Shown here: positions 3,073 to 17,012 of the stretch, one piece after another
How positions within the stretch are numbered: position 1 is the stretch's first letter
Layout: each line of letters begins with the position of its first letter
Virus genome (UHGV): UHGV-0254309
Reading direction: 5' to 3' (one strand)
Length of the DNA: 19,819 nucleotides
Source: a virus
Notes under the pieces: generated by a model
Told to the model about the DNA's origin: nothing
Seen by the model: only the letters and a program-made list of their open reading frames with translations
Database searches by the model: none
Program-made: the position numbers and the translations under genes

Positions 3073-3367
3073 TTTGTCGCTCCATTCGTTTGCTCTTCAC
3101 TTGCGGCTAAAAATATAACGTCAAATCACTCAGCATGAAAGTGTGAAAGTTTCAGCGCGTTTCCCTTACATAATCTGTCGTTTGTATTCTCTCCAGGCAT
3201 ACCGAAAAGACTAGGTATTGTCACACAACCAATACCACCGACTATCGAGATTTATATCTATTCGGTAATGTTTAAATATAACAAAACCCCGTAAAAACGA
3301 GGTTTATGGGTAAATTGTATTGTTGAATAGCATCTAACAAGAAATTGATGCTAATACTATAAACAGA

Positions 3368-8815: not shown

Positions 8816-9568
8816 TTATCTCGTCACTTTTCTTAATTGCACCTCAGCATATGCTTCTTCCTGCCAGCACTTTGTAACCAGTTTATCAATGACATCTGCA
8901 TATCCTTTGTACCACTGATAATCAGTCAGGGCTGGTACCAGCTTCTGGACATGACACCGCGCCAGTGTCGTTGGTAAACGACTAAACCGGTTTCCATTGC
9001 AACGCCCACAAATCTTATAAACAGGCGCGCCATGAAGCCGGGTCCTTTTTTCATCCAGGACAATACCTTTACCCTTACACCCTCTGCACGCTGTGCTGAC
9101 TTCTCCCTTACCATGGCAATGCTGACATAGTTCCTTCACCCACTCTTCCTTGATAACAGATTCCCCGCTTCTGGAGTGTTTCACCACTTCGCGCAATACA
9201 TTATGAAATCCAGTACCTGCACAATGCTCACAGCGAGCCTTACTTGCCGCAGACCTGGAATAATCAGCAAAGGCAAAATTCACAAGGTAAGGGATGATCT
9301 GTAACCGGATTTCTTCACTCAATTTATTCAATGTCGGGTTATCCAGTGCCATCGCGTAATTGAGCAGACCTTCAATCGCAAACTGAGGATCCTGAACACC
9401 AACTTTTGCCAGGAATAAGGCAAAACCCAGTGGTGCTTTCGACTGCACCATCCCCTGCGCAGCCATCACATCCGTAATCGTTAAACCACCCGAGCCTGTC
9501 GCCGGTGCGTCATCACTCAATTTTGGAGATTTTGGGGAGTAATATTTTGGTAAGGCTTCAAGGTTCAT
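8816..9568 (-). CDS. quuQ: Late-gene antiterminator Q (Cys-rich type)
   Basis: Listed ORF starts at GTG 9610; ATG at 9568 with GGAGAA upstream gives 250 aa. Four CxxCxGxG repeats (CEHCAGTG, CQHCHGKG, CRGCKGKG, CGRCNGN). Position between nin region and late promoter. Confidence 0.75.
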   Translation of the reverse strand: MNLEALPKYYSPKSPKLSDDAPATGSGGLTITDVMAAQGMVQSKAPLGFALFLAKVGVQDPQFAIEGLLNYAMALDNPTLNKLSEEIRLQIIPYLVNFAFADYSRSAASKARCEHCAGTGFHNVLREVVKHSRSGESVIKEEWVKELCQHCHGKGEVSTACRGCKGKGIVLDEKRTRLHGAPVYKICGRCNGNRFSRLPTTLARCHVQKLVPALTDYQWYKGYADVIDKLVTKCWQEEAYAEVQLRKVTR

Positions 9569-9581
9569 GCTCGTTCTCCAC

Positions 9582-10577
9582 TTACGCCAGTACGCCTGTT
9601 GCCAGCGCACGATCGATAAAACGAAATATCAGCTCCAGCTGGGAGCCATACTTCTCTTCAAATGCCACGGTATCCGCATGCAGCTCGTCGTGATGCTTTC
9701 TGCACAAAGGCAACACAAAGAGGTCATGCGCTTTTGTTCCCATTCCACCCTGACCGTGACCTATCAGGTGGTGGGGATCATCAGCAGGCTTTCCACAACA
9801 TGCACACGGCTGTGTCTTAACCCAGCGCGTGTACTTTTCATTAACCCAGCGGCGACGTTTTGGGCGTAACATAAAAGACTCCGGCGACTCCGGATCCACT
9901 TTCAGCGCCAGCACCTTTTTTGCCTTATCCTGGATGATGCTGGTGGCAGGAACCGAAGGCACAAGGTCACTTTCCCGGGTGACAGACGGCACAACAGGCT
10001 TTGGTAATCTCAGTGCCTTACGGGCTGCACTTTCCGGTAAGGCATCCGCCAGGTCATTACGAATCAGCCACCAGCACAGTTCCGGCATTGTCACAACGTG
10101 ACTATCATCAAAACCGAGATCCCGACGCACGACAGATAACACCCAGTGGGCACAGTTATCCGTTGCCATTGATTCCAGCCGTTCCGTGAACTGATCACGC
10201 AACTGGTTATCGCAGTGCCAGCACAGACGGATTGCGCCCGGCGCGTGTCGCATTGTGGTCATGTTCTCGCTGTGCCAGTCGGAATGAGGCCACTGACAGC
10301 CCTTTTCACGAAGTAACCAGCTTTCAAGACATTCCACGCCACCAGCACGACGGATCACTGCCTCATTGCGGAACACGACCCGAACGGCAGGATCATCCGC
10401 CAGCGGTTGTGATGCCGCCGGAACGGCACCACTGGCGAAAGATGAATAACGTTCCGGCTCAGGCTCCAGCAGGACACGCCCCTGCATAAACAGGGGCATC
10501 AGCTCTGAACCTGGCCTGAACAATACGATCCCCATACGCGGGGCAATTTCAGGGGTCAGTAGTGCTCTCACGGTCAC
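9582..10577 (-). CDS. ydfU: DUF968-family phage protein (YdfU-like)
   Basis: 331 aa; C-terminal Cys/His cluster CACCGKPADDPHHLIGHG...LPLCRKHHDELH typical of DUF968. GTG start 1 nt after the KilA-N stop. Confidence 0.65.
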   Translation of the reverse strand: MTVRALLTPEIAPRMGIVLFRPGSELMPLFMQGRVLLEPEPERYSSFASGAVPAASQPLADDPAVRVVFRNEAVIRRAGGVECLESWLLREKGCQWPHSDWHSENMTTMRHAPGAIRLCWHCDNQLRDQFTERLESMATDNCAHWVLSVVRRDLGFDDSHVVTMPELCWWLIRNDLADALPESAARKALRLPKPVVPSVTRESDLVPSVPATSIIQDKAKKVLALKVDPESPESFMLRPKRRRWVNEKYTRWVKTQPCACCGKPADDPHHLIGHGQGGMGTKAHDLFVLPLCRKHHDELHADTVAFEEKYGSQLELIFRFIDRALATGVLA

Positions 10578-11395: not shown

Positions 11396-11785
11396 TCAGG
11401 CGGCTGCACCCGCCGTTTTCTCGTACTTACTGATAGTGATCTCGACCTTCCCTTTCGGGATAACCGGTCCCCACTCCACCAGCATTCTTTTCACCTGTCT
11501 GTCGTCTTCCCACACACCCGCGTGGGTCAGGGCGTCAAACAGCGCCTTGTTATAGTTGTCCAGATCGCGGATCCGGTTATCCGGAGGAAACAACACGATC
11601 TCCACTGAAGCAGGTGCCGACGTTGGTTTCGGCAGACGACGTAACTGCTCAACTATTGCTGCGCACGCCGCGCTCTGGAATTTGCGCCCCGCCGCGCTTA
11701 TCAGGCTTTTACCAGCAAACGCCCCTTTGTTAGGGTGTCGCCAGTACGTATTCACGCTGGGCGGGAAAGGCAGGATCAGTTTCAT
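11396..11785 (-). CDS. rusA: RusA-family Holliday-junction resolvase
   Basis: 129 aa; MKLILPFPPSVNTYWRH...DLDNYNKALFDALTHAGVWEDD carries the conserved RusA acidic motifs. Start overlaps the upstream stop (ATGA). Confidence 0.8.
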   Translation of the reverse strand: MKLILPFPPSVNTYWRHPNKGAFAGKSLISAAGRKFQSAACAAIVEQLRRLPKPTSAPASVEIVLFPPDNRIRDLDNYNKALFDALTHAGVWEDDRQVKRMLVEWGPVIPKGKVEITISKYEKTAGAAA

Positions 11786-12108
11786 ACTTTCAGGCCTCTC
11801 TCATGTAACCAGTGGGTTGCACGCAGCCTTGCGTTTTCCTCACCGGCAAGCAGTGAGCGGATAATCCCGACAGCCTCGCTGTCGTCGTCCTTCACCGCGG
11901 TATGAAGCGTTATCCCCCGGGCCACGCCACGCTTTATCGTGATGACGCCTTTTTTCTCCAGTGCGCGAAGATGCTCCACCGCTGCATTCACTGAACGGTA
12001 TCCCAGCATGGTTGCCACCTCCTGATTGGTTGGCGGGAAGCCACGTTCTTTCTGGTAAGAAATCAGCATATCCAGCACCTGCTGCTGGCATTGAGTTAAT
12101 GTCGTCAT
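11782..12108 (-). CDS. LexA-like winged-helix DNA-binding protein lacking the peptidase domain
   Basis: 108 aa; QQQVLDMLISYQKERGFPPTNQEVATMLGYRSVNAAVEHLRALEKKGVI parallels the LexA N-terminal domain, with no S24 Ser/Lys module. Start overlaps the methyltransferase stop (ATGA). Confidence 0.65.
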   Translation of the reverse strand: MTTLTQCQQQVLDMLISYQKERGFPPTNQEVATMLGYRSVNAAVEHLRALEKKGVITIKRGVARGITLHTAVKDDDSEAVGIIRSLLAGEENARLRATHWLHERGLKV

Positions 12109-12758
12109 GCCGCCATCTCCCTGACCAGTTTTTCCGCCTGCTGGCGAACCTGCGCCAGAAAGGCCTCACCACATGCCTCAAGTTCATCGCGCCCGATGTA
12201 GCTGATTGCCGGTCCCTTCCAGGTCTTGTCGAAAACAACAATAGCACCAGCGAAGAAAGCGCCTGTCGGCACCTGCTTCTCGTCCTTCGGTATAAACCAG
12301 GCAGGCAGTTCAAAACCAATACGCCCGCGAATAAAAGCAATATGATCTGCATCTTCCGGCCACCACACTTCGCTGGTGGCAGCTTTGATCAGGAAAACAT
12401 AGCGCCCGCCTTTATCACGCATGGCACTGGCATGTTTCATGATGTAACGCATGCCGGTGATGTATTGCCCCTCATGCTGACTGGCGCGGCTGTATGGGGG
12501 ATTACCAAAGGCAGCACCTTTAAGCTCCGCAAGACGTTCTGACCAGTCATGCGCCAGCGCGTTATCTTCCGCCGTGTAATACGCTGCACATTTGGCGTTA
12601 TCACCGTCAGTAAACAGATCCAGAACAAACGGGCCAAACAGGGTGTTAATTCCCCAAAAAATGTTGTCCGGTGTGCGCCACTGATCGCCCACTTCCTTCA
12701 GTTCATGGGCTGGTTTGTTCCGCAGTTCCACCAGCGCCTGGCAATATTTATTACTCAT
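12105..12758 (-). CDS. Phage orphan N6-adenine DNA methyltransferase (Dam-like)
   Basis: NPPY motif (GNPPYS) of amino-methyltransferases. Likely start is the ATG at 12758 in a TAATG overlap with the upstream stop (about 217 aa). No adjacent restriction endonuclease. Confidence 0.8.
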   Translation of the reverse strand: MSNKYCQALVELRNKPAHELKEVGDQWRTPDNIFWGINTLFGPFVLDLFTDGDNAKCAAYYTAEDNALAHDWSERLAELKGAAFGNPPYSRASQHEGQYITGMRYIMKHASAMRDKGGRYVFLIKAATSEVWWPEDADHIAFIRGRIGFELPAWFIPKDEKQVPTGAFFAGAIVVFDKTWKGPAISYIGRDELEACGEAFLAQVRQQAEKLVREMAA

Positions 12759-13246
12759 TAAGCCCCCACGTAATTCCCTGACAGATACCACTCTTCACCC
12801 GATGCAGCGCGCTTGCAGCTTTTCCGTAAGCACCGCTCACGACGCGTCAGAAAATTGTTTCGTTCTGGCTGGGAGTGGCTTTCACGGAATGCCGCCATCC
12901 ACACGGTTGCAGCACGACGGTATAAGCCCCTTGACTCCAGTTCTTCAGTCTGGCGGGTCAGGCACAAAATCACCCGGGGATCGTTAGTGCCGACATAGAA
13001 ATTGCGCACAGGTCTGGTTTCACGAACTGGTTGTGGTTCCGGCTCCTGCGCTCTCTCAGTCAGGCGTGGGAAATGTCTGCGTGTATCTCCTTCACAACGG
13101 TGAGCCACACGCCCACTCTGACGTAACTTGCTTGCTGACTGCAGAACGCGCTGCCGTGAGTAACCTGCAAAAGCATCCGCAATGTCTCCGGAAGTACACC
13201 CCGGATGGGCTTCAATGAATTTCTGAACTTCATTCAAAAGACTCAT
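12758..13246 (-). CDS. PerC-like transcriptional regulator with an extra N-terminal region
   Basis: Segment LESRGLYRRAATVWMAAF...RRERCL resembles the PerC/Pch family core. ATG at 13246 with GGGGGTG Shine-Dalgarno 2 nt after the O-like stop; listed ORF starts at GTG 13252. Confidence 0.5.
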   Translation of the reverse strand: MSLLNEVQKFIEAHPGCTSGDIADAFAGYSRQRVLQSASKLRQSGRVAHRCEGDTRRHFPRLTERAQEPEPQPVRETRPVRNFYVGTNDPRVILCLTRQTEELESRGLYRRAATVWMAAFRESHSQPERNNFLTRRERCLRKSCKRAASGEEWYLSGNYVGA

Positions 13247-13248
13247 GA

Positions 13249-14055
13249 TCACCCCCTGAATCCTGCCGGGATCTGGCTGTAGTCCACGTTGTCGTAACTG
13301 GCTTTGAAGTACGGGTCCTCACGTCTGGCTGCAGATACCGCAGGAACTTCCCAGGATTCTTCGAAATGACGATCCGGGCCAAAGAACGTGACAGCCTGTT
13401 TCACAAATTGTGTGCCGCTGTTACCCATCGCAGATACCCAGCCCGCGTAGCGTTTCACACCTTCCAGCATGGTTTCGGGGTTTACCCCCTCATTCAAACG
13501 GGCTTTCCAGGCTTTGAAGGCTGCAGATTTTGAATTGCCACCAGCACGTTTGGGATATACCAGCCATGCCTGCTCAAACTCCGGAGAGTATTCCGGTCGG
13601 TTTGAACGAACTCGCACGGACTCATCAACTGATGCACCAACAGCTATTGGTTCATTGACTGGTTCAAAAGAGTGACTGGTTCTGGGTGAATCTCCTGCAC
13701 TACCCCCTGGTGCAACTCCTGCACTACCTGGTGAATTTGCTGCACCAGATAGTGAATTATTTGCACTACCCCCTAGTGAATCTCCTGCACCATCAAGATG
13801 AAGGAGATAGATATTACTTGAGTTACCTTTTTCACCTTTCCGGGTGACTTTTTTTACCAGCCCGGACTCACAAAGGGCCGCAATATGATTCATCACAGAA
13901 CGTTTGCTAATCTCGCACTGGTCAGCAATATGCTGGTAGCTGGGCCAGCACTCACCCTGATCGCTGGCATTATCAGCCAGCTTGATCAGAACCAGTTTTC
14001 GCAATGGATTACCCACTCGAATTTTCATCGCTTTAACCATCAGCTCCATACTCAT
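13249..14055 (-). CDS. Replication initiator, lambda-O-like architecture (N-terminal wHTH, repeat-encoded linker, C-terminal domain)
   Basis: 268 aa; N-terminal winged HTH (LRKLVLIKLADNASDQGECWPSYQHIADQCEISKRSVMNHIAALCESGLV), low-complexity linker encoded by direct DNA repeats, distinct C-terminal domain. ATG overlaps upstream stop. Confidence 0.7.
   Translation of the reverse strand: MSMELMVKAMKIRVGNPLRKLVLIKLADNASDQGECWPSYQHIADQCEISKRSVMNHIAALCESGLVKKVTRKGEKGNSSNIYLLHLDGAGDSLGGSANNSLSGAANSPGSAGVAPGGSAGDSPRTSHSFEPVNEPIAVGASVDESVRVRSNRPEYSPEFEQAWLVYPKRAGGNSKSAAFKAWKARLNEGVNPETMLEGVKRYAGWVSAMGNSGTQFVKQAVTFFGPDRHFEESWEVPAVSAARREDPYFKASYDNVDYSQIPAGFRG
13685..13798. repeat. Iteron-like direct repeats inside the initiator gene (candidate phage replication origin)
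   Basis: About five 21-24 bp repeats with core (G/A)GTGAAT..CTGCAC (e.g. GGTGAATCTCCTGCACTACCCCCT, AGTGAATCTCCTGCACCATCAAG), flanked at 13800-13860 by an AT-rich stretch. Confidence 0.6.
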
Positions 14056-14276
14056 GCTGCACCTCCGAGATGCTTCATGTTTTTTCCGGAGCGAAAGGCT
14101 ATAAGCGGCATACTGACGCGGTAATTACGGCCCAGCGGTTCACAAATCACCTTCTGACATTCACGGTCAACCAGGCTAACACGTAGAACATGCCCTGCAG
14201 GTGTGGTATACCACTGACCCGGACGAGGACAACGGAAAGTCTGATTGGTAAACCGTTTGAAAATATTCCGGATCAT
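14052..14276 (-). CDS. Hypothetical small protein (74 aa)
   Basis: Tightly packed between the Rha-domain ORF and the initiator gene, with start/stop overlaps on both sides. No recognisable domain. Confidence 0.45.
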   Translation of the reverse strand: MIRNIFKRFTNQTFRCPRPGQWYTTPAGHVLRVSLVDRECQKVICEPLGRNYRVSMPLIAFRSGKNMKHLGGAA

Positions 14277-15421
14277 TTGCGCCCCCTTACCTCTGAAGGG
14301 TTCAGCGACAAATTTATGAGGCAGGCCAGCGCCGAAGCATCATTAATATAGTCATACAAGCTAACAGCCAGCGGAGATTCGGCTTTTGCCAACATAGGAT
14401 AAAGCTGCTGCAGCCAGACCTGATGAATTGATGAAATGTAGGAATAGAGAACGCTGGCGTTATGTGCAACGTCGCTCGGTACAGGGGGTTTTGAAAGCTG
14501 TTTCTCCATCTGGTTAAAGGCATTGATATATGCCTCTTTGAACTGGGCAGCACGTTTACCCGTGAAACCCATAGCAAGAAACGCAAAGCCGTCGCGGGTT
14601 ATTTGATAGCAAGGTAGTTTGCGGCCTGATGCGTCGATGTACTCACTGAGCTGAAAATTCAGCTCAGTAAATTCGGCAGAGCATTCAAGAGACGCAATTT
14701 TTTGAATGACATTTTTGTGTTGTTTGCCGAAATAACTAGCAACAGCCAGAGAAGAAGTAACAACTTTGTCTGCAATAATGCAAAGTTCAGGTTGTACTAA
14801 GGCAGGGATCGTAGCCATGATGGCAGCCTCCGTATGCAATGGATAACTTCCACCACCGGAAACGCCAATTTCGCTGGTGGTGAACTGAGCAGGGTTGGCG
14901 TAACCGGCGCATACGGAAACCGGCGCACCTTTCGGTGCCCCCACCCAGCCCACCATAATTTGGGTATAGCTGAGTTGTAGCAACAAAAAAGACGCTAACG
15001 CGCCAATTGTCGCCGTATGCAATTCCAGGACGCCAATCCCGGCACCCGCTTTATAAGGTGCCTGAACAGTGTAACGTCCCGGAATGGCAGAATCAATGTG
15101 CTGGTGGTCCTTCACACTCAACAAAATCACGCCTGAATTTCCACAAAGGACTAAAGCACTCATGCGGGTAGTCTTTGCGAAGATAGATAACGCGCTGTGT
15201 TTCTGGTTCCCAACGAATAACATGAACATAAAGCCCTCTTCCGTCACGAAACCAGCGGTTAAGTTCCTGCACAACTCGCCCCCCACAGTCAGGTAAAGTT
15301 CTCTGTGGTTACTTACAGCCAGGTGATTTGGTAATCTGCATTCATGCCGTAACAACAGGTGTTCAGAGACGCTGACCACCAGCTGTTGCGACAAACGGTT
15401 ATTTGCCGTTAAACTGTTCAT
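14273..15421 (-). CDS. Rha-family phage regulatory protein with a roughly 200 aa N-terminal extension of unknown function
   Basis: Residues about 215-300 (VTSSLAVASYFGKQHKNVIQKI...YQITRDGFAFLAMGFTGKRAAQFKEAYINAF) match the Rha domain. Long ORF starts at an ATG overlapping the upstream stop; an internal ATG at about 14818 with GGAGG upstream would give a 181 aa Rha-only product. Confidence 0.6.
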   Translation of the reverse strand: MNSLTANNRLSQQLVVSVSEHLLLRHECRLPNHLAVSNHRELYLTVGGELCRNLTAGFVTEEGFMFMLFVGNQKHSALSIFAKTTRMSALVLCGNSGVILLSVKDHQHIDSAIPGRYTVQAPYKAGAGIGVLELHTATIGALASFLLLQLSYTQIMVGWVGAPKGAPVSVCAGYANPAQFTTSEIGVSGGGSYPLHTEAAIMATIPALVQPELCIIADKVVTSSLAVASYFGKQHKNVIQKIASLECSAEFTELNFQLSEYIDASGRKLPCYQITRDGFAFLAMGFTGKRAAQFKEAYINAFNQMEKQLSKPPVPSDVAHNASVLYSYISSIHQVWLQQLYPMLAKAESPLAVSLYDYINDASALACLINLSLNPSEVRGRK

Positions 15422-16319: not shown

Positions 16320-17012
16320 ATGAACATAGGAAACCGAGTCAGACAACTTCGCCAGGCGAAGAACATGAAAATCGCCGATCTCGCTGAAGCAATAGGAGTG
16401 GATGCGGCGAATATCTCGCGCCTGGAAACAGGTAAGCAGAAACAATTCACTGAACAAGCCCTGAGTAATATTGCCAGGAGCTTAGGTGTTGATATTGCTG
16501 ATCTCTTTACCTCAGACGTCAAAAGTAATACTGTATGTAAAAACAGTATTAGTGAGGATGTTGCGCAGGTGAAGGATGTATTCCGTATTGAAATGCTGGA
16601 TGTCAGTGCCAGTGCGGGAAATGGCCTTATCCAGGGCGGTGATGTCATTGATGTGATTCATGCCATTGAATACAGAACTGATAATGCTGTATCGATGTTT
16701 GGCGGACGACCAGCCAATCACATTAAAGTTATCAACGTTCGTGGGGACAGTATGTGTCCAACCATTGAGCCAGGAGATCTCATCTTCGTTGATGTCAGTA
16801 TCAATCAGTTTGATGGAGATGGTATCTATGTATTTGGTTTTGATGATAAAATTTATGTCAAACGACTGCAAATGATACCTGACAAACTACTGGTGATATC
16901 TGATAACCAGATTTACCGTGAATGGGGAATTACCAGCGAAAATGAACACCGGTTTATGGTCTTTGGAAAGGTCTTAATCAGCCAGTCACAAACCCTTAAA
17001 CGACACAATTAA
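16320..17012 (+). CDS. CI-like prophage repressor (HTH plus S24 LexA-type autopeptidase domain)
   Basis: 230 aa; N-terminal XRE HTH (RVRQLRQAKNMKIADLAEAIGVDAANISRLETGK), Ala-Gly cleavage-site candidate (SASAGNG), catalytic Ser in GDSMCPT and Lys in VKRLQ. Confidence 0.85.
   Translation: MNIGNRVRQLRQAKNMKIADLAEAIGVDAANISRLETGKQKQFTEQALSNIARSLGVDIADLFTSDVKSNTVCKNSISEDVAQVKDVFRIEMLDVSASAGNGLIQGGDVIDVIHAIEYRTDNAVSMFGGRPANHIKVINVRGDSMCPTIEPGDLIFVDVSINQFDGDGIYVFGFDDKIYVKRLQMIPDKLLVISDNQIYREWGITSENEHRFMVFGKVLISQSQTLKRHN

Follow-up and report, generated by a model that had tools for sequence, protein, structure and literature searches.

The locus described here raises the question of what a protein of the PerC family contributes when its gene forms part of the early operon of a phage. 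The DNA analysed, a stretch of 19,819 nucleotides from the viral genome UHGV-0254309 (the window), is as a whole a lambdoid prophage, and the gene in question, yfdN, lies in its early-right operon, on the minus strand at positions 12758 to 13246. A preliminary description of the locus, made from the letters of the sequence alone, had assigned the open reading frame (ORF) at these positions to a PerC-like regulator; its coordinates, which include the stop codon, proved exact, with the ATG start favoured, and the minus strand, which it had left unstated, is added here. The gene is almost certainly yfdN, a member of the PerC family whose product has two domains, and it is a known, widespread and functional (intact) gene. 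Because yfdN is already annotated as belonging to the PerC family, this finding is not new; the near-obligate pairing of YfdN with the replication initiator encoded upstream, two conserved C-terminal peptides, and a Ren-like N-terminal domain are minor new points. With regard to mechanism, YfdN may well act as an early accessory regulator.

yfdN is among the most common prophage genes of Escherichia coli, is present in Shiga-toxin-converting and Shigella serotype-converting phages, and carries a family label only. If YfdN is a DNA-targeted anti-silencing factor or a replication accessory, it would show the role of the PerC fold in ordinary phage biology; the virulence regulators PerC and Pch would then look like recruited offshoots of a phage early-gene family.

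Identity and domain architecture of YfdN

The features of the gene and its product are as follows.

12758..13246, minus strand: yfdN-like coding sequence (PerC family transcriptional regulator), 162 amino acids (aa) plus stop, from the ORF list, the sequence and PHROG 1324
13067..13246, minus strand: predicted N-terminal winged helix-turn-helix domain, aa 1-60 (H1, short strand, H2, H3, two-strand wing)
12983..13066, minus strand: Pro/Glu-rich linker of variable length, aa 61-88
12809..12982, minus strand: PerC core with three predicted helices, aa 90-105, 109-122 and 126-144, covered by the PF06069 match
12899..12925, minus strand: LYRRAATVW, the PerC/Pch signature, aa 108-116, aligned with GLYRRAAERW of PchA and GFYRRAAARW of PchE
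12761..12790, minus strand: conserved C-terminal tail WYLSGNYVGA, aa 153-162, kept in relatives down to ~25% identity

Membership in the PerC family is supported by several independent comparisons. The Pfam profile PF06069 (PerC) matches aa 98-148 (E 1.1e-7; 32.4 bits, where the gathering cut-off is 22.6), and also matches 25 of 26 diverse two-domain relatives; PHROG 1324, labelled 'transcriptional activator', spans aa 1-161 (E 3.3e-76); and protein clusters at 97% identity carry the name 'PerC family transcriptional regulator'. NCBIfam gave sub-threshold matches only, to ANR and to the MarR-type regulator BilQ. BLASTP against the Pch proteins of the Sakai genome found 40% identity over 43 aa with PchA (E 4e-7) and 38% identity over 52 aa with PchE (E 3e-9). 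The resemblance of the LYRRAATVW segment to the PerC/Pch core, which had been noticed by eye, is thus borne out both by the profile score and by alignment to PchA and PchE, and no confident match to a replication family emerged. The core motifs LE-x-x-GL[YFW]RRAA-x-x-W and RR-x-x-C-[LS]-RK are both present in YfdN, where the corresponding segments ELESRGLYRRAATVW and RRERCLRK align to PchA and PchE; L103, R111, A112 and R136 are invariant across the family and C139 is nearly so. PerC of enteropathogenic E. coli, PchA, PchB and PchC of enterohemorrhagic E. coli, and YfdN share the three-helix core with E-L-E-x-x-G-L-Y-R-R-A-A-x-x-W and R-R-x-x-C-L-R-K.

With 162 aa and, ahead of the core, an extra winged helix and linker, YfdN does not have the small single-domain size (~90-105 aa) that is typical of Pch proteins, and is therefore a member of a two-domain PerC branch rather than a typical Pch. 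PchA, by contrast, has 104 aa and lacks the winged helix, the Pro/Glu linker and the YLSGNYVG tail; its gene lies near the lysis region of prophage Sp4, beside an insertion sequence (IS) element, and not after a replication gene. PchE (Sakai ECs_1588) resembles YfdN in having the PerC core and in that its gene adjoins replication genes, but is a single-domain protein of 90 aa without the conserved tail. Identity of YfdN with PchE is ruled out, as Sakai PchE, encoded in prophage Sp7, is single-domain and only 38% identical over the core. The nearest known protein is YfdN of the cryptic E. coli K-12 prophage CPS-53/KpLE1 (in RefSeq 'PerC family transcriptional regulator'; PHROG 1324), which represents the same gene, with the same length and domain order; the DNA of the gene in the window is found at 95-99.8% identity in 2539 complete-genome records, a range that also holds for its identity to genes that carry the name yfdN in RefSeq, and nothing of substance differs.

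An AlphaFold2 model of YfdN built on a 26-sequence alignment had a mean predicted local distance difference test (pLDDT) score of 86.7, with 95-98 in both domains (97-98 in the PerC core), and a predicted template modelling score of 0.47, which fits two domains placed independently of each other; an earlier model was also made. The N-terminal domain is predicted to adopt a winged-helix fold of the MarR/ArsR/BlaI-like kind, given the H1-strand-H2-H3-wing topology of the model and its structural similarity to solved winged helices; the winged-helix-like region that the preliminary description proposed for this longer-than-usual protein is therefore also found in the model. The Pro/Glu-rich linker, with pLDDT of 45-58 in both models and many insertions and deletions in the alignments, is probably disordered, and residues 145-162 are likewise of low confidence (pLDDT ~53). 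The C-terminal tail nevertheless follows a family-wide consensus, [WC][YF]L[AS]Gx[YF]xG, and is maintained despite synonymous codon variation across loci; the peptide is found in some short PerC-only proteins and is missing from PchA and PchE.

A search of 1.84 billion representative proteins returned only 158 relatives at E <= 0.001. Both domains are kept in at least 25 clusters at 50% identity, and the fusion of winged helix and PerC core is a stable sub-family and no one-off. Separately, five proteins (P0020, P0021, P0024, P0033 and P0034), each represented in one or two contigs, have the PerC region fused to Dam, RusA or the HTH_36 domain of the initiator; these look like products of frameshifts or deletions and not like real architectures.

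Translation signals and operon context

The genes and sites that adjoin yfdN are as follows.

13249..14055, minus strand: replication initiator gene, 268 aa, with Pfam HTH_36 and DnaD_N and a match to PHROG 270 'replication initiation protein' (E 8e-88)
13252..13272, minus strand: C-terminal tail IPAGFRG of the initiator, its last two codons being the yfdN Shine-Dalgarno sequence
13686..13790, no strand assigned: five iterons GTGMAWYTNCTGCAC, from a repeat search, within the initiator coding sequence
12105..12758, minus strand: phage Dam methyltransferase gene (Pfam Dam, E 8e-46; TIGR01712, E 6e-76), boundaries matching RefSeq and the sequence

As read from the sequence, yfdN opens with ATG at 13246 and closes after 162 codons with TAA at 12758-12760. 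The program-made ORF list lengthens the gene to a GTG at 13252, and RefSeq uses the same length of 164 aa with a start two codons earlier; the ATG at 13246 is the conserved and better start, because homologues down to ~25% identity in the family alignment all begin with MS(L) and because the GTG codon is gone wherever, among the loci compared, the initiator stop is TAA. The gene directly upstream is a replication initiator, as had been proposed; its TGA stop (13249-13251) is separated from the ATG of yfdN by 2 nt, and the two sense codons before that stop (13252-13257) supply the Shine-Dalgarno sequence AGGGGG of yfdN, while the TAA of yfdN overlaps the ATG of dam (TAATG). Translation of yfdN is coupled both to that of the upstream initiator and to that of the downstream dam gene. 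Purifying selection acts on yfdN, with a median ratio of nonsynonymous to synonymous substitution rates of 0.17 over 55 E. coli alleles. Terminator-like sites in 11700-14400 were not more common than in shuffled sequence.

The C-terminal half of the initiator matches PHROG 1701 'DnaD-like helicase loader' as well as PHROGs for primosomal proteins. The five iterons GTGMAWYTNCTGCAC, 15 nt long and spaced ~21-24 nt apart, lie in the stretch that encodes the Gly/Ser-rich linker of the initiator and probably mark the phage origin of replication; in phage lambda the iterons of ori are likewise located inside gene O.

Distribution among E. coli genomes and phages

yfdN was found in 2668 of 5426 complete E. 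coli genomes (49%), nearly always flanked by the same initiator and by dam. Its occurrence among prophages, a point that the preliminary description had left for follow-up, extends to Stx2c, Stx2a and Stx2k converting phages, to mEp460, to SfV (as orf40), SfII and SfIV, and to Salmonella phage ST64B, whose version (sb43) is 67% identical; in Stx2a_WGPS2 the gene is broken by an IS element. A near-identical yfdN is also present in an O111:H8 genome, and relatives occur in Salmonella, Citrobacter, Hafnia and Leclercia. The best matches to the whole window, at 97%, are prophages of strains S88 and APEC O1, which we take to be extraintestinal strains without the enterocyte effacement locus (LEE). 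In two E. coli loci (L005 and L007) with a YfdN 96% identical to that of the window, the upstream initiator, intact in the window, is shortened to 122 aa; these loci presumably resemble the degenerate CPS-53 prophage of K-12. In addition, a contig of 326 bp (JBLKRX010000125.1) assigned to Fredinandcohnia humi, a Bacillus relative, codes for the last 71 aa of YfdN at 93% identity and is probably E. coli contamination of that assembly.

Pairing of yfdN with the replication initiator

Loci were gathered for the E. coli type, for two divergent sub-families whose identity to the window protein is 35% and 30%, and as single loci from Shigella, Citrobacter and Leclercia; a locus search of genome contigs contributed 7 loci only, and no relatives of protein P0187 were found in viral contigs. 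Among the loci with an ORF upstream, 125 in total, the gene immediately before the YfdN-like gene is in every case an initiator homologue, and in the relatives the stop codon of this homologue overlaps or abuts the start of the YfdN-like gene. By contrast, the gene downstream varies, being Dam, a protein of 106-119 aa consisting of a LexA DNA-binding domain only, a Dam fusion of 397-409 aa, or others. When 77 loci were picked in reverse, by the mEp390-type initiator alone, a YfdN-like gene lay directly downstream in 69 and was missing in 8.

The initiators themselves are far from uniform. Ranging from 268 to 353 aa, and in some cases mutually dissimilar, all of them (loci L005-L254) carry IPxGFRG at the C terminus, with 0-3 residues after it. 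YfdN proteins that are 98% identical stand behind no fewer than three initiator bodies, one of 268-285 aa as in the window, one of 313 aa (30% identical) and one of 330 aa (no detectable similarity), and initiator bodies upstream of near-identical YfdN have only the last 24-31 aa in common. The codons of the GFRG tail vary synonymously (AGG, AGA, CGC or CGG for Arg; CCG, CCT or CCA for Pro), so that the tails of both initiator and YfdN are kept at the protein level, beyond any role in ribosome binding. The alternative that the tails are conserved solely as carriers of Shine-Dalgarno sequences was rejected, as different synonymous codons are used for Arg, Gly, Pro, Leu and Tyr, and the motif persists where extra residues trail it. 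As a side observation, the IPxGFRG tail marks a mosaic junction between initiator types and yfdN.

The pairing is not without exceptions. In phage mEp390 the initiator is followed directly by the LexA-domain gene, without yfdN, and in phage cdtI (NC_009514, ~3111-3188) only the first 26 codons of yfdN are left, directly before dam; cdtI is a natural, near-complete yfdN deletion in a phage deposited as a complete genome. We take both phages to be viable, as they are deposited as phage genomes. Because the initiator tail is kept in loci without YfdN, the idea that this tail exists to bind YfdN is weakened.

Proposed role of YfdN

Pch proteins relieve silencing by H-NS, StpA, Hha and YdgT, with H-NS binding at LEE1 reduced in vivo and in vitro (PMC4764244). 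Beyond the identity and architecture of YfdN, we infer DNA binding, a target and a direction of effect along the following lines. We give about an even chance to the reading that YfdN is an early accessory regulator, in which the winged helix engages DNA and the PerC core acts on nucleoprotein or transcription. YfdN would be made together with the initiator upon prophage induction or infection; the winged helix would direct it to specific DNA; the PerC core, acting like that of the characterised Pch proteins, would alter H-NS-type nucleoprotein complexes or transcription at the bound site; and the tail could serve as a docking peptide for a partner. YfdN would thus be accessory, neither an essential replication protein nor a helicase loader, and its targets would more likely lie in the phage or the general host genome than in the LEE.

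A number of points weigh against this reading. The recognition-helix residues of the winged helix vary across the family, which makes DNA binding by YfdN an assumption; no DNA target of YfdN was identified in this analysis, and no sigma-70-like promoter was found in 11700-14400. Members of the PerC family act differently, so that neither direction nor targets can be transferred from one to another: PchE represses csgD/curli and adhesion genes (PMC6265319, PMC7369912), EcCIMP1_025, a PerC-like protein from a phage-inducible island, represses LEE1 (PMC11773190), and only PerC and PchA-C have been shown to activate LEE1/ler or to relieve silencing by H-NS (PMC5931665, PMC4764244). A literature search on yfdN returned a precautionary deletion, screen and expression lists and a network, and nothing on YfdN function; a screen for glycogen phenotypes on overexpression (PMC2853380), a table of expression in the nitric-oxide response (PMC5320621) and a predicted interaction network all list the gene. 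Finally, adjacency to the initiator in 125 of 125 and 69 of 77 loci exceeds what a generic regulator would need and hints at a link to replication.

Possible relation to replication

The preliminary description had placed the gene in the slot where a helicase loader would be expected. As a statement about position this is fair, since between cI (16320-17012) and Q (8816-9610) no replication gene other than the initiator is recognisable, but similarity to a loader was not found. YfdN has no match at E <= 0.1 to helicase-loader families among Pfam, PHROG and NCBIfam, no match to any replication family in four profile libraries, and no ATPase motifs; its family profile aligned by hhalign to lambda P with a probability of 0.2% over 6 columns. 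With the loaders of the lambda P/DnaC type YfdN has only the gene position right after the initiator in common, and the fold differs. The helicase-loader assignment is rejected on these grounds together with the predicted fold of a winged helix plus three helices and the absence of the gene from mEp390 and cdtI; as judged by sequence comparison, YfdN resembles no helicase loader, and it may well be an accessory factor.

A rival reading is that YfdN is a replication accessory or adaptor, a functional analogue of lambda P that acts with the GFRG-tail initiator at the origin, where it would, for example, recruit or hand over host DnaB-DnaC or clear nucleoid proteins, with the tails of YfdN and initiator docking on the same host partner. 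We consider this unlikely, although several points speak for it: yfdN occupies the P position with no helicase or loader gene between cI and Q; YfdN-like genes down to ~25% identity directly follow IPxGFRG initiators, with stop and start overlapping and the downstream neighbour variable; loci chosen through the initiator only recover a YfdN-like gene in most cases, as given above; the C termini of both proteins are short conserved peptides that resemble each other in pattern and persist despite synonymous codon changes; and PerC-family genes follow primase and single-stranded DNA-binding protein (SSB) genes in the satellite-like Sp7 and adjoin a primase gene in a phage-inducible island (PMC11773190). 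Against it stand the lack of ATPase motifs and of any resemblance, in sequence or by profile, to lambda P, DnaC/IstB, DnaT or other replication families, and the retention of initiator and tail without a YfdN-like gene in mEp390, cdtI and 8 of 77 loci, which indicates that the cognate initiator does not need YfdN alongside it. Moreover, the presence of 98%-identical YfdN behind at least three initiator bodies means that YfdN does not co-vary with the initiator; in lambda, by contrast, P goes with the C-terminal domain of O. Host proteins may also be recruited by the initiator alone, because it already carries a DnaD/DnaT-like C-terminal domain of its own, and the resemblance of the two tails may stem in part from Shine-Dalgarno sequences embedded in both 3' ends.

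In its most far-reaching version, YfdN and the IPxGFRG initiators would constitute an undescribed two-gene replication module of enterobacterial temperate phages, in which the PerC-type protein is a non-essential origin-associated factor; this is a doubtful proposition, and the same doubt attaches to its mechanistic corollary that YfdN clears H-NS-type nucleoprotein from the origin or docks through its tail on the host replication protein bound by the initiator tail. If such a module existed, the PerC fold would acquire a role in replicating DNA rather than in regulating virulence. A separate observation is that pchE, in the small capsid-encoding element Sp7 of Sakai (locus L002, 31104-32045), lies directly after primase and SSB genes; it may be general among phages and their satellites that PerC-family genes adjoin replication genes.

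Possible resemblance to Ren and ANR

It is improbable, in our view, that YfdN is instead a protein-binding factor of the Ren or ANR kind, in which the winged helix serves as a protein-interaction module without sequence-specific DNA binding and the PerC/ANR-like helices tie up a host regulator (H-NS or a protein of the AraC family) or act against an exclusion system. Lambda Ren is, like YfdN, a small winged-helix protein encoded by the first gene after the replication genes of the early-right operon. By hhalign, YfdN residues 1-64 aligned to Ren 1-65, starting at the first residue, with a probability of 26.6% when a single Ren sequence was used and of 71% (E 3.7e-5) when the comparison was with an alignment of Ren proteins. 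This is a weak similarity, at 17% identity, that may reflect a generic winged-helix resemblance; it does suggest that yfdN sits in the 'ren slot' of a module without a P gene. PHROG 142 'Ren-like exclusion protein' matches the N-terminal domain of YfdN (E 0.011), YfdN and Ren have secondary PHROG matches in common, and the variable recognition helix noted above would also fit. Unlike YfdN, however, lambda Ren has 96 aa and no PerC domain, and the Ren family is confined to close relatives in enterobacteria. We know of no established mechanism for Ren itself, and the winged helix of lambda Ren is a protein-interaction module by presumption. The NCBIfam family ANR (AraC negative regulator, NF033650) gave a weak match (E 0.0012) of 18.7 bits, far under the curated cut-off of 32, such that YfdN does not fall within it, and PADLOC returned nothing relevant. 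A role as an anti-phage defence component was discarded, the only PADLOC match being a spurious one to GajB (E 0.0099) with no matched stretch.

PHROG 1687 ('MarR family', 162 positions) is matched by lambda Ren (L176, 1681-1971) at profile positions 1-65 and by the N-terminal domain of YfdN at 70-121, and may hold tandem winged-helix proteins related to both.

Virulence regulation

That YfdN, expressed from the prophage, regulates virulence in the host in the manner of PchA-C and PerC, activating ler/LEE1 or other horizontally acquired virulence genes, is very improbable, even though it belongs to the PerC family with the same core motif as PchA and PchE, near-identical genes are carried by the Stx2c, Stx2a and Stx2k converting phages and the O111:H8 genome, and the authors of a ler-lacZ study took the precaution of deleting yfdN, 'the K12 unique PerC homologue', before measurement (PMC5931665). 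Identity to PchA is no more than 40%, over 43 aa, yfdN lies in the lytic early operon and not in a cargo (moron) position like pchA, and the closest matches to the window are the prophages of S88 and APEC O1. Activation of ler is documented for PchA (PMC5931665, PMC4764244); within the Pch group, PchA-C raise ler expression 4-fold or more, whereas of the non-group-1 proteins PchE does so by less than 2-fold and PchD has no such effect (PMC5931665), and the PerC-like island protein acts on LEE1 in the opposite direction. Regulation of the LEE is unlikely as the main function of YfdN because the gene is so widely distributed, in nearly half of complete E. coli genomes and, as relatives, in the four further genera named above.

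Other genes of the early region

Beyond dam, a gene on the minus strand at 11782-12108 encodes a protein of 108 aa with the LexA DNA-binding domain only (PF01726, E 3e-19), without an S24 peptidase domain, which could be a non-cleavable LexA mimic; such a gene is located two genes downstream of yfdN in most loci, and right after the initiator in mEp390 and other loci without yfdN. The Q antiterminator gene (8816-9610, minus strand; PF03589) includes a DnaJ-type CXXCXGXG zinc-finger region, at 34.5 bits against a cut-off of 32.7. Upstream of the initiator, an ORF of 382 aa on the minus strand at 14273-15421 has an Ash domain (aa 117-212) and a Rha domain (aa 222-307), preceded by an unmatched N-terminal stretch of 116 aa; the proteins found at this position in related loci measure 112, 278 or ~383 aa, and because of these differing lengths we regard this part of the early operon as highly mosaic.
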